A DNA stretch of 64,000 nucleotides from Escherichia coli. GTDB lineage: Bacteria; Pseudomonadota; Gammaproteobacteria; Enterobacterales; Enterobacteriaceae. The stretch lies in NCBI RefSeq assembly GCF_044324785.1, contig NZ_CP172127.1, one strand, 5' to 3'. Each line of letters opens with the position of its first letter. Position 1 is the first letter of the stretch. Position numbers: made by a program. Positions 53,301-56,300 of the stretch are shown here, one piece after another.

Positions 53301-56300
53301 AAAGACTGGTTTACCTGTACCGCTACCGCGATGTACAGCAATGATCCTGGACACGACAAGCGGTGGCGAGCTGACGCAATCCCCTGGTCTGAGCACAACA
53401 CTGAGGCATTCGCCGGACTACACAACGAGCGCAAACGCATCATCGTGGTATTCGATGAAGCGTCGAACATTGCGGATCTGGTGTGGGAGGTAGCAGAGGG
53501 TGCGCTGACGGACGAAGACACCGAAATCATCTGGGTGGCGTTCGGGAACCCGACGCGTAATACCGGACGTTTCCGCGAATGTTTCCGCAAATATAAACAC
53601 CGCTGGAAAACTGCGCAGATTGACAGCCGGACGGTGGAAGGCACTAACAAACAGCAGTTGCAGAAATGGGTTGATGACTACGGGGAAGACAGCGACTTCG
53701 TTAAAATCCGTGTGCGTGGCATATTCCCTGATGCATCTGAATTGCAGTTTATCCCTACCGGTCTTACTGACGAGGCAATGAAACGGGTGGTAACCGCTGC
53801 GCAGGTTGCACATGCTCCGGTGATAATCGGCGTTGACCCGGCATACTCCGGCGTTGATGACGCTGTGATATACCTGCGGCAGGGGCTGCACAGTAAGGTG
53901 CTATGGACTGGTAACAAGACCACCGACGATCTGATTATGGCGAAGCGTATCGCTGACTTTGAAGACCAGTATCAGGCTGACGCAGTGTTCATCGACTTTG
54001 GTTACGGTACCGGTCTGAAGTCAATCGGTGACGGCTGGGGTCGTACATGGCAACTTGTTCCGTTCGGCGGTGCGTCTACTGACCCGCAGATGCTCAATAA
54101 GCGCGGGGAGATGTTCAATGCATGCAAGACATGGCTGAGGCTGGGCGGCATGCTGGATGACCAGGAAACAGCGGACGACCTGTCGGCGGCAGAGTACAAA
54201 GTTCGAGTGGACGGTAAAATCGTTATCGAACCGAAGGAAGATATCAAAGAGCGGCTTGGGCGTTCTCCTGGTAAAGGCGATGCGCTACTGCTGACGTTTG
54301 CGTTCCCTGTGTCGAAGCGTCTGCGAATTCCCGGGCAGCAGAACCAGCAAGGCAAGGCCATCACAGATTACGATCCCTATGCTTAATCCTCTGGTGGGGA
54401 TAATGTCGTTGATATCCTCTGGTGAGGATAAAACAAAGCCAGCTCATAGGCTGGCTGTTTGTGACATGTCACGGTGTTATTGCTCGCTTAACTTCTGCTT
54501 CAGCAAGTAACCTTCAAGCATCCAGATTTTGTTTACAGCATTCTGCCGGGCAATCTTCCGACCAATTTCTGCATCAAAGTTTTCCGGGCTTGCACAGGCA
54601 CTCTCTCCGGTAACGGTGAAGCCATTCTTCAGTACCAATACGCAGAAAGTCAGGAGGTCTGTAGATTTATGCGCTACCCATGAATCGCCAACGCCCATAT
54701 TGGCAGCACGAATGCCGTCATAAGCAGTAAAGAAATGCTCTTCAAGAATGATGCTTTCGATATATTGAGGCGTAACTCGCGGAGCGGTTTTGCCTTTCTC
54801 AACGATTTCTTTTTCGATTTGCTGGTCGTTCATAATCTCACCTTAAAAAAATGCCCGGCGAACCGGGCGAACTGGAAGCAATGAGTTATGCCTTCCGTGG
54901 CTGTACTGGTTTACAGCATGAAGTCATCGCAATGGCGTCGTGCTGTAAAAAGGGCGGTGATAGTCCTTCAAGGGAAACCATCACCGCCAAGCCCCTGGAA
55001 CTTCTGGCATCACGGTCCTTAGGCGTGATTCTGGCGTGGCATGCAGGATTCGAACCTGCGACCAACCGCTTAGAAGGCGGTTGCTCTGTCCGACTGAGCT
55101 AATGCCACAACGCTGAGAGCACTTAGCCTGTTAAGGCGCCACACTTTGTCGCGGCTCCATAAATGCTCTCATCGTTGTACCCTCGTCTCTTCCGAGGCGT
55201 CACACCGAATCGCCGGGATGGTGAATCCCCGTGCGCGGAATAAAACCGCTCGACTTGCACATTCCGGCTACCTGGTTCGTTTGCCCGAGCAAGGGAGGGT
55301 GCCCCTTAAACGTATCCAGACCGCTATCGGCGCATGTGCCATACGCCGTACTGCTCAAAATAAAAGCTCACTCCACCTGTTTAATTTAACGACAAGCCAG
55401 TCAGGTTAGTAACCAGAATGAGCTCTTTAGTTACCCGAAAGGTAATAATTCACGCGTTAAATGTCAACCTTCTACGATAAATAAATCATATGTGGTTAAA
55501 TTGGTAATAATTTAATTGCGTACGGAGTCATTGATATGTGCATGGGTAGCTCACCATCAGTGCCTGCAACACCAGAAGTTCAGGCAGCACCACAGGAGCA
55601 GGATGCCGCCGTTGTTGATGCCCGCGACGAAGAAACACGTCGCCGTCGCGCTGCTGCTGGTCGTAGTTCTACGCTGCTTACCGGTTCTCAGGGCGACACA
55701 TCAACCGCTAATACCAGCGGTAAAACGCTGCTTGGTCAGTAACCGGAGTCATTGAAATGGCGGAAACAACTAAAGAGCGATTGAACAAACAGTTCGCACA
55801 ACTTGAAAGCGAGCGTCAGTCGTTCGAGCCGCACTGGCGCGAGTTGAGTGATTACATCAACCCGCGTGGTTCCCGCTTTCTGACTTCTGAGGTCAACCGT
55901 AACGATCGACGCAATACACGTATTATTGATTCGACCGGGACTATGGCGGCGCGCACTCTCGCCAGCGGCATGATGTCAGGCATCACAAGCCCCGCGCGTC
56001 CGTGGTTTCGCCTGGCTACGCCAGATCCTGAAATGATGGATTATGGCCCTGTTAAGTTGTGGCTTGAGGCGGTGCAGAACCGCATGAACGATATGTTCAA
56101 TAAGTCGAATCTCTACCAGTCTCTTCCGCAGTTATACGGAAGCCTCGGCACATACAGCACCGGTGCAATGGCGGTACTGGAGGATGACGAGGACATCATT
56201 CGCACAATGCCATTCCCGATAGGCAGTTACTACCTGGCTAACTCACCTCGTGGCAGTGTTGACACCTGTTTTCGCAAGTTCTCTATGACTGTTCGTCAGC

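Follow-up and report, generated by a model that had tools for sequence, protein, structure and literature searches.

A predicted double-pseudoknot RNA directly upstream of tRNA-Arg(UCU) in an Escherichia coli prophage and shared by unrelated temperate phages

What is encoded on the minus strand between the terminase and portal genes of an Escherichia coli prophage? The question arises in a 64,000-nt stretch of contig NZ_CP172127.1 (assembly GCF_044324785.1), hereafter the window, which from about 38.8 kb on consists of a phiV10/epsilon15-like (Uetakevirus) prophage. Between TerL (52911-54386) and a 68-aa open reading frame (ORF; 55536-55742, plus strand) that precedes the portal gene (55757-57436), the minus strand holds a gene for a 118-aa protein (54477-54833), a tRNA-Arg(UCU) gene (55108-55032) and a 322-bp block (55109-55430). 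An initial annotation, made from the sequence alone, had read this group as a moron-like insertion and had offered three identities for the block: a structured noncoding RNA (ncRNA), a processed leader or a degraded tRNA array. Comparative analysis indicates that the block is not filler but contains a structured RNA core of about 170 nt with four covarying helices and two pseudoknots. Strong covariation, and the position of the block directly 5' of the tRNA on the same strand, bear out the block as a structured ncRNA and as a candidate for a processed leader.

A conserved core with covarying helices

The core occupies positions 55352-55176 on the minus strand. We defined it from an alignment (A3) of 67 sequences and 206 columns, comprising 66 representatives (less than 90% identical over 359 nt) and the window sequence, and from a covariance model (R1) built on that alignment. 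Its helices are P1, a hairpin of the form CGGCR...YGCCG; P2, which closes a variable insert; P3, a variable hairpin; P4, a hairpin; and P5, a hairpin with the loop GAAGAGA. Two pseudoknots complete the fold: PK1 joins the P1 loop GCACAU to an invariant AUGUGC, and PK2 joins the P4 loop CACC to a downstream GGUG. P1, P2, P4, P5, PK1 and PK2 define the family together with the invariant stretch GGUAGCCGGAAUGUGCAAG, and the window copy has all of them. An invariant stretch of 19 nt lies within the core.

Standard pairs account for 96.4% of A3 cells, compared with 88.5 ± 0.4% in shuffles, and sliding the 3' partners by 1-3 columns as a control lowers pairing to 27-48%. Double-sided changes occur in 15 of the 29 pairs and in 141 cells, against 42.7 ± 7.3 after shuffling, with none of 500 shuffles reaching the observed value. 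Between three and five compensatory pairs fall in each of P1, P2, P4 and P5. PK2 also covaries, CACC/GGUG being replaced by AACC/GGUU (C-G to A-U) in five sequences. Because PK1 is invariant, it is neither supported nor contradicted by covariation. The G.U pairs are consistent with the minus strand only, which is the strand of the tRNA.

The covariance model finds a single copy at 55352-55176 (144.7 bits, E = 1.5e-45, model positions 1-162), a score that includes the contribution of the window as one of the 67 seed sequences. Independently of the seed, BLAST showed the window copy to be 82% identical to the copies in phage mEp460 and in Stx2c phage. Elsewhere R1 scores 133.6 bits in phage P1, 131.3 bits in P7 and 110-168 bits at 28 further loci. 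Folding z-scores are -5.4 for the 616-nt window region and -5.0 for its mEp460 counterpart. A second R1 match in the window (48894-48985, plus strand; 11.2 bits, E = 0.013) lies within a prophage ORF and is probably due to chance.

A decayed tRNA array, a pseudogene or a hidden small-protein gene, conserved only by recent spread, would be another account of the block, and it could draw on the T-loop-like hairpins that relatives carry outside the core, in the insert of the adjoining P6 domain, and on the short coding sequences (CDSs) annotated over the region in several public records. The pattern of variation speaks against it. Across the 67 homologues the core ranges from 154 to 182 nt with no multiple-of-three constraint on indels, 12 and 9 distinct lengths occur for its variable hairpins, and substitutions lack a 3-base periodicity, which confirms the initial description of 55109-55430 as non-coding. 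ARAGORN and Rfam detected no tRNA-like unit in 55109-55430, and the conserved fold is not a cloverleaf, so the degraded tRNA array falls away. Compensatory changes in four helices and a pseudoknot, together with 70-83% conservation across unrelated phages and across genera, count against decay or coding as well. On these comparative grounds decay products or coding sequence are essentially excluded, and we regard this account as very improbable. The label 'GC-rich' holds in part: the block is only mildly so (53.1%, compared with 49.7% for the prophage), the RNA core reaches 59%, and the promoter region next to it (55431-55535) is 31% GC.

A motif in the P2 apical loop, CUUG, is present in 41 of the 67 homologues compared with 8.8 expected. 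Mimicry of the 16S 3' end or anti-Shine-Dalgarno sequence by this loop was considered and set aside; judged from the sequences, CUUG may pair with an invariant CAAG instead.

Distribution across unrelated temperate phages

A sensitive BLAST search with the block matched 92 phage records. Uetakeviruses are 97-99% identical over its full length, and a central region of about 190-240 nt is 70-83% identical in unrelated phages. The carriers include the lambdoid phages cdtI, mEp460, Ayreon and 2H10 and the Stx2a/Stx2c-converting phages; P7 and further P1-like phages; Klebsiella, Enterobacter and Salmonella phages; and two Stenotrophomonas phages. Three unrelated temperate-phage contexts are represented, in which the element lies between the terminase and portal genes (Uetakeviruses), just downstream of cI and behind a PL-like promoter (lambdoid phages) or between trnI and ban (P1/P7). 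Each phage record has it at one place, and the window holds one copy.

The element is present in 1839 of 5426 complete E. coli genomes, at 2473 places, 554 of which are on plasmids; the plasmid copies are those of non-mobilizable P1-like phage-plasmids of about 90-100 kb (582 records). The exact 19-mer GGTAGCCGGAATGTGCAAG occurs in at least 120 IMG/VR contigs and in 24 species-representative genomes, the genera being Citrobacter, Klebsiella, Kosakonia, Phytobacter, Buttiauxella, Pseudescherichia, Pseudocitrobacter, Superficieibacter, Escherichia and Ca. Erwinia. Near-identical RNA copies (139-168 bits) also appear on two contigs of 1.7-3 kb from metagenome-assembled genomes labelled Bacillota/Lachnospiraceae (loci L136 and L149). 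These copies are likeliest to be mis-binned enterobacterial phage DNA and do not point to presence in Firmicutes.

An RNA class outside current annotation

No Rfam 15 family matched the window region at E ≤ 10, and none matched six homologous loci at E ≤ 1. The Rfam models for ROOL, GOLLD, tmRNA, RNase P, 6S, YrlA, C4, riboswitches and ribozymes gave no match over 55109-55430 or its homologues, and ARAGORN found no tmRNA in the window or in the relatives searched. At permissive Rfam thresholds the tRNA was the sole match to stand; a weak RyhB match proved to be a terminator (T2, below), and plastid matches were the tRNA read antisense. Among the matches listed in complete E. coli genomes, PGAP has no annotated feature under any copy of the element, and nearly all of the phage-record copies retrieved by BLAST lack annotation. 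Literature searches by sequence string and keyword returned nothing on the element, with a paper outside the searchable literature being possible; nor did it appear in the phage csRNA catalogue of Fremin & Bhatt, the Breaker 50-genome study, or the literature on Pas small RNAs, mEp phages and ZX5. Short of such a paper, these comparisons make the element a new RNA class with high prevalence in E. coli that is also present in phage P1.

Several public records carry 'hypothetical protein' CDSs that overlap the RNA, the tRNA or the tRNA-like module described below on either strand, and these are probably spurious: PhiV10p04 (L001, 2672-2923), mEp460_037 (L003, 2430-2798), Tyrion gp54 (L006, 1350-1511), a CDS of L162 (2382-2672) and WCS67766 of the Stenotrophomonas phage BUCT709. 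An ORF in the window at 54851-55102 (plus strand) is equally doubtful. Replacing the CDSs in the public phage records by an ncRNA feature would be a practical gain.

Anatomy of the transcription unit

The core is part of a minus-strand unit of about 490 nt that consists, in order, of an operator-overlapped promoter, a 5' hairpin (H0), the core, the P6 domain, tRNA-Arg and the terminator T1, with a second terminator (T2) and the 118-aa gene following. The candidate promoter, read from the sequence, has a -35 element TTGACA (55467-55462) and a -10 element TACCTT (55444-55439) separated by 17 nt, and transcription is expected to start near 55432. The pattern TTGACA-17 nt-TAnnnT is kept in all Uetakevirus homologues. 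Overlapping the -10 element and the start site is a palindrome, TTACC-N5-GGTAA (55431-55445, both strands), to which we return below. In 34 of 65 representatives, compared with 1 of 55 controls, the 220 nt upstream of the core contain a promoter-like site (at least 9 of 12 matches), and in several backbones the predicted start site coincides with the beginning of the core.

H0 (55427-55362) is a long stem related to P6 that appears in both the minimum-free-energy and the centroid folds. Inspection by eye showed compensatory differences between it and the Salmonella, Enterobacter and Klebsiella versions, and the epsilon15 record labels the homologous hairpin 'RNaseIII'. On the other side of the core, P6 (55180-55107) is a stem of 13-15 bp, ACAACGAUGAGAGCA / UGCUCUCAGCGUUGU, with a variable insert. 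It adjoins the 5' end of the tRNA, its 3' strand ending in GUU directly before tRNA G1. In relatives the stem covaries (AACGAUGAGAGC/GCUCUCAGCGUU, AACCAAAAGAGC/GCUCUUUUUGUU, AACGAUGAUGGCU/AGUCAUCUUCGUU), and double-sided changes occur in 9 of its 16 pairs, a count that applies to stems pre-selected for pairing. A boxA/nut reading of the P6 3' strand (GCUCUUU...) was ruled out, since that strand covaries with its partner.

A trailer hairpin, AUCACG..CGUGA (55029-55010), follows the tRNA and is kept after the tRNA or tRNA-like module in many 3' flanks. Regular-expression counts of the H7, GUUGUGG and acceptor-like motifs were uninformative, the antisense control being palindromic. The RNA unit ends at T1 (54988-54943), a 14-bp GGCGG..CCGCC stem with a U-run. 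A T1-specific pattern recovered homologous terminators 3' of the core at 77 of 119 loci, and no control had one. Between T1 and T2 a hairpin, ACAGCA..UGCUGU, is predicted (54946-54869), and this spacer is kept in phages with a different cargo gene (BLAST matches start at 54845). T2 itself (GCCCGGUUCGCCGGGC followed by U7; 54868-54846) is kept in Uetakevirus loci, and its U-run adjoins the ribosome-binding site of the 118-aa gene.

tRNA and tRNA-like modules

The tRNA gene (55108-55032, minus strand) has an encoded CCA, is called by ARAGORN with the anticodon tct and scores 73.3 bits with the Rfam tRNA model (RF00005; gathering score 29), in agreement with the initial assignment. The T arm, D arm and anticodon loop match those of argU of E. 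coli K-12, and the acceptor and anticodon stems differ; the earlier description of a phage-specific, argU-type tRNA with a host-like T arm and a divergent acceptor stem is therefore accurate.

The association of core and tRNA is not general. In 32 of 130 loci, on several backbones, the core has a tRNA-Arg(UCU) on its 3' side and on its own strand; three P1-like loci have a tRNA-Met/Ile just upstream of the core instead; and 95 loci have no recognisable tRNA. Where the core is followed by P6, the sequence always continues 'GUU|GUGG...', into either a real tRNA-Arg or a tRNA-like module. In most of the 95 tRNA-less loci this is a variable, multi-arm module with an acceptor-like stem, GUGGUG...CACCAC, and sometimes an ACCA end. 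Such modules are rarely accepted as tRNA by ARAGORN, and searches with tmRNA, intron-containing and relaxed settings were mostly negative. Because a non-decoding, tRNA-like module replaces the tRNA in most relatives, decoding cannot explain why the module is conserved. From its position and form, a plausible role is that of a handle for processing by RNase P (and at the 3' end) that frees the RNA upstream.

A rare-codon tRNA serving the late genes had been suggested, and for this the case is weak: TerS, TerL, portal, scaffold and major capsid genes contain no AGA codon. The O-like replication gene has 6 in 271 codons and one large late gene 7 in 823, and overall AGA is used about twice as often in the prophage as in the host ORFs that flank it. 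Because AGA is concentrated in early replication genes, apart from that one large late gene, the real tRNA fits an early role better than a late-gene role.

Probable repressor control in three phage backbones

The palindrome on the promoter is one of 14 copies of TTACC-N5-GGTAA in the window, where 1.1 are expected. Copies lie at 44855-44931, 45629-45691, 46014, 47960-48036, 52286-52318, 38774 and 55431-55445. Pairs of them flank the helix-turn-helix repressor gene (44989-45573) on both sides, others are upstream of replication and packaging genes, and one is that on the RNA promoter. The GenBank record of epsilon15 labels the homologous palindrome a repressor site. This layout suggests a P1-like scheme in which dispersed operators would control many promoters of this podovirus prophage. 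Given the operator motif on the promoter and the epsilon15 annotation, the unit is probably silent in the lysogen and fires on induction or infection.

A similar arrangement recurs in other backbones. In mEp460, Ayreon, the Stx2a/Stx2c phages and the Stenotrophomonas phage BUCT709 the RNA lies directly downstream of a cI-like repressor gene and is co-oriented with it. The Stx2c sequence, read by eye, has a cI terminator, then a promoter TTGACA-16-CATAAT with a palindromic operator, and then the RNA; the Ayreon record annotates a cI terminator and a promoter between cI and the RNA. In lambda, nutL and N occupy this position downstream of PL. In P7 the core is inside the C1-controlled ban operon, and P1 has it at the same trnI-ban position; in both, tRNA-Ile/Met is 11 nt upstream of the core and ban 93 nt downstream of it. 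The carrier phages thus appear, from these arrangements, to turn the RNA on once the repressor is lifted. That the RNA is placed behind early promoters under repressor control in phages of three unrelated architectures implies an early function that is general, selectable and probably exerted on a conserved host component.

These observations modify the idea of a moron-like insertion. Unrelated phages share the RNA module horizontally, and the protein gene behind it is swappable cargo; the unit has its own promoter and terminator, is dispensable and varies among related phages, as a moron does. The insertion between terminase and portal genes is indeed present here, but it is not special to this prophage, since the slot exists in each Uetakevirus examined (phiV10, SPN1S, Tyrion, PAT1, Klebsiella phages and epsilon15) and is ancestral to the genus. 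Morons are also expressed from a repressed prophage, and here a repressor operator motif overlaps the promoter, which argues for repression in the lysogen. Given the ancestral slot and the operator-bearing promoter, the locus is better seen as an early lytic unit than as a lysogen-expressed moron.

Some lambdoid carriers have further features. In one lambdoid lineage (loci L116, L067 and L027) the core lacks P6 and the tRNA-like module and is directly followed, some 125 nt 3' of the 19-mer, by a nut-like site made up of a perfect rrn-type boxA (GCTCTTTAACAA) and a hairpin. mEp460 (L003, 4847-5035) and the Stx2c phage (L005, 4777-4965) carry isrK and C4 antisense RNA (Rfam, 60-84 bits) beside a Rha antirepressor gene, a group that represents a P1-type immI module inside lambdoid phages.

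What the RNA may do

We tentatively read 55467-54943 (minus strand) as a self-contained, repressor-controlled ncRNA gene whose product is freed at the tRNA junction and acts in trans, an interpretation to which we assign somewhat less than an even chance. Once repressor leaves TTACC-N5-GGTAA, host sigma-70 RNA polymerase would start near 55432 and transcribe about 490 nt to T1. The transcript would fold into H0, the double-pseudoknot core of about 170 nt, P6 and tRNA-Arg(UCU). Cleavage by RNase P at 55108/55109 would then yield a structured RNA of about 320 nt and the tRNA, and RNase III may trim H0. The released RNA would be the true product, made early by temperate phages of Enterobacterales, and would most likely bind a conserved host component in trans. 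The tRNA would add decoding of AGA in AGA-rich early genes, and partial read-through of T1 and T2 would give low expression of the cargo gene.

Several properties favour action in trans. A conserved terminator of its own closes the unit, each phage has a single copy, and the tRNA-like 'handle' is conserved. The RNA is kept while the cargo turns over, and in one Uetakevirus (L117) the unit lacks any downstream gene and converges on the terminase gene. Some copies, moreover, coexist with the boxA/nut-like site described above. In its ecology the unit is similar to the prophage-borne, tRNA-associated ROOL and GOLLD RNAs discussed below. Other observations weigh against this interpretation. The -10 element is weak, and a stricter promoter scan of the window made no call at this position; both the action in trans and its target are conjecture. 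P1 and P7 have the core without P6, tRNA-like module or terminator, 93 nt upstream of ban in an mRNA leader, which suits a role in cis; the next large downstream ORF is co-oriented in 77 of 95 loci; and in the Uetakevirus and lambdoid contexts intrinsic terminators separate the RNA from promoter-less genes, as a cis-acting antiterminator predicts.

These last points bring in the possibility that the core is a leader for processive antitermination or anti-polarity, in which the nascent RNA would bind RNA polymerase, possibly with Nus factors, so that only polymerases from the repressor-controlled promoter pass T1, T2 and any Rho sites of the long untranslated stretch into the accessory genes. 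Besides the co-oriented downstream ORFs, such a leader would account for a core that opens early operons or lies close to their 5' ends (in the PL position of lambdoid phages, in the ban operon of P1/P7 and, in several backbones, at the predicted start site), and its long invariant single-stranded stretches fit a conserved host machine as target. In the window the ribosome-binding site of the cargo gene comes directly after T2 and no promoter was found for that gene; at L084 cargo genes follow both T1 and T2; in mEp460 a terminator separates the first early-left gene from the RNA; and Pfam detected no N-like protein among the Ayreon early-left genes. Yet there is a single copy per phage and none in the rightward operon, whereas the RNA-only antiterminator of HK022 needs both putL and putR (PMC9378689), and put differs in architecture and is less than half as large as the core. 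The conserved terminator of the unit, the copy at L117 with no gene behind it, the lambdoid copies followed by GCTCTTTAACAA and a hairpin as in an ordinary nut-like site, and the retention of T2 and the cargo gene in epsilon15 after loss of the core are also difficult to reconcile with such a leader. We consider antitermination in cis unlikely, although it is the main rival to action in trans.

A role confined to the tRNA is less probable still. The 5' domain might control the folding, processing or stability of the tRNA, for example as a scaffold for RNase P or RNase III. In favour, it is directly 5' of tRNA-Arg(UCU) at the 32 loci on several backbones, P1-like copies are 11 nt 3' of tRNA-Ile/Met, and at other loci a tRNA-like module stands where the tRNA would be; the RNase III site predicted in H0 by the epsilon15 annotators is in keeping with this. 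Most loci (95 of 130) have no recognisable tRNA, in P7 and P1 the core comes after the tRNA with ban next, and a 170-nt double pseudoknot with a 19-nt invariant stretch is more than an ordinary tRNA leader requires, which together leave this an improbable explanation. A ligand-sensing or catalytic RNA in early transcripts, such as a riboswitch aptamer, a small-molecule sponge or a self-cleaving or processing ribozyme, seems to us about as improbable. Compact pseudoknots, invariant unpaired nucleotides and a variable periphery are typical of aptamers and ribozymes, and the RNA has a compact pseudoknotted fold, many invariant unpaired nucleotides and a fixed core amid variable peripheral hairpins, sited in operon leaders. 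It lacks a conserved expression platform beside the core, what lies downstream varies (tRNA, tRNA-like module, the ban ribosome-binding site or boxA), and it resembles no riboswitch or ribozyme in Rfam.

Going further, it is conceivable, though we would call it doubtful, that the core represents a new functional RNA class with an activity of its own, be it an RNA-only processive antiterminator, much larger than put, that would reprogram E. coli RNA polymerase, a ribozyme or small-molecule binder, or a self-assembling particle in the manner of ROOL and GOLLD. Such an RNA would be deployed by temperate enterobacterial phages, P1 among them, in the first minutes of lytic growth, with the tRNA or tRNA-like module serving as a 'release handle' for RNase P.

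Relation to known RNAs

ROOL and GOLLD RNAs are found in phages and prophages, often near tRNAs. The linker of GOLLD sometimes contains tRNAs, and expression of GOLLD increases during the lytic cycle; both RNAs have multiple pseudoknots, no known protein partner and an unknown function (bioRxiv 10.1101/2024.12.08.627333). The present RNA resembles them in being pseudoknotted and in occurring in phages and prophages near tRNAs. It differs in having no match to an Rfam model at E ≤ 10, in size (a core of 170 nt and a unit of 320-490 nt, compared with 580-800 nt or more) and in its hosts, which are Enterobacterales.

The put element of HK022 is an RNA-only antiterminator of about 70 nt with two stem-loops, present in two copies, putL on PL and putR on PR (PMC9378689). 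Both RNAs are structured and lie just downstream of a repressor-controlled early promoter, at the putL/nutL position in lambdoid phages, with terminators downstream. By the published description of put, the present RNA differs in its core of 154-182 nt, its five helices and two pseudoknots, its occurrence once per phage, its own terminator and its presence outside lambdoid phages.

Parallels exist outside these groups. EAR of Bacillales eps operons and conAn2 of Gram-positive conjugative elements are larger structured RNAs that mediate processive antitermination within or at the head of an operon. They are unrelated to the present RNA in sequence and host, and the likeness lies in a large structured RNA in or at the head of an operon. 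In MALAT1-mascRNA, the tRNA-miRNA units of MHV68 and the stable RNAs of phage T4 (species 1 and 2), an ncRNA is co-transcribed with a tRNA or tRNA-like structure and is probably freed by cleavage there. These are analogies only, the first two being eukaryotic or eukaryotic-viral, and processing of the present unit is something we infer; the BLAST results of the block showed no homology to the T4 stable RNAs. Among phage-borne argU-type tRNA-Arg(UCU) genes, that of the window is an ordinary member (73 bits) but is fused to a conserved structured leader.

A double-pseudoknot RNA without Rfam family or annotation is thus present in about one third of complete E. coli genomes and in P1, which are among the best-studied of systems. 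It may give Enterobacteria a tractable counterpart of ROOL and GOLLD, or provide a second case of RNA-only antitermination.

Cargo turnover and neighbouring features

The initial call of a minus-strand gene for 118 aa was confirmed as an ORF (54477-54833), whose product belongs to the gp49/Sf6 gp66 family (Pfam Phage_gp49_66, PF13876; E = 1.4e-34); a promoter scan found no promoter of its own for it. Other Uetakeviruses carry different cargo in the same slot: a DUF551 gene and another gene in Tyrion, a DUF2829 gene in a Klebsiella phage, and other genes in TL-2011b and EC.W1-9. At L084 one cargo gene follows T1 and another follows T2. TerL and the cargo gene have convergent terminators, and between these lies a perfect 12-bp palindrome, GTGACATGTCAC (54461-54472). 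Other Uetakeviruses keep this palindrome at the edge of the cargo slot, and the cargo deletion of L117 ends exactly there; it may serve cargo exchange as a site of recombination or binding.

Epsilon15 (L159, NC_004775.2) has an internal deletion in this region (1497-1603) that removes most of the core, the tRNA-Arg and half of T1 and leaves T2 and the cargo gene in place. Its record annotates repressor, IHF and RNase III sites in the intergenic region. Because epsilon15 has lost most of the core, the RNA is dispensable for a viable phage, yet it is retained in very many phages; epsilon15 offers a natural knock-out for comparison.

In Enterobacter phage Tyrion an int-alpA RNA (RF02996; L006, 450-514; 44 bits, gathering score 35.8) lies in the cargo region, between the RNA unit and the terminase gene. 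The other prophage genes placed in the window are those for the integrase (38831-40081) and TerS (52240-52914). The 68-aa ORF (MCMGSSPS...), which is without a Pfam family, is kept directly 5' of the portal gene as epsilon15 gp3 and PhiV10p06. In the host flank upstream of the prophage, an ORF of 2679 aa extends from 25916 to 33955 on the plus strand.

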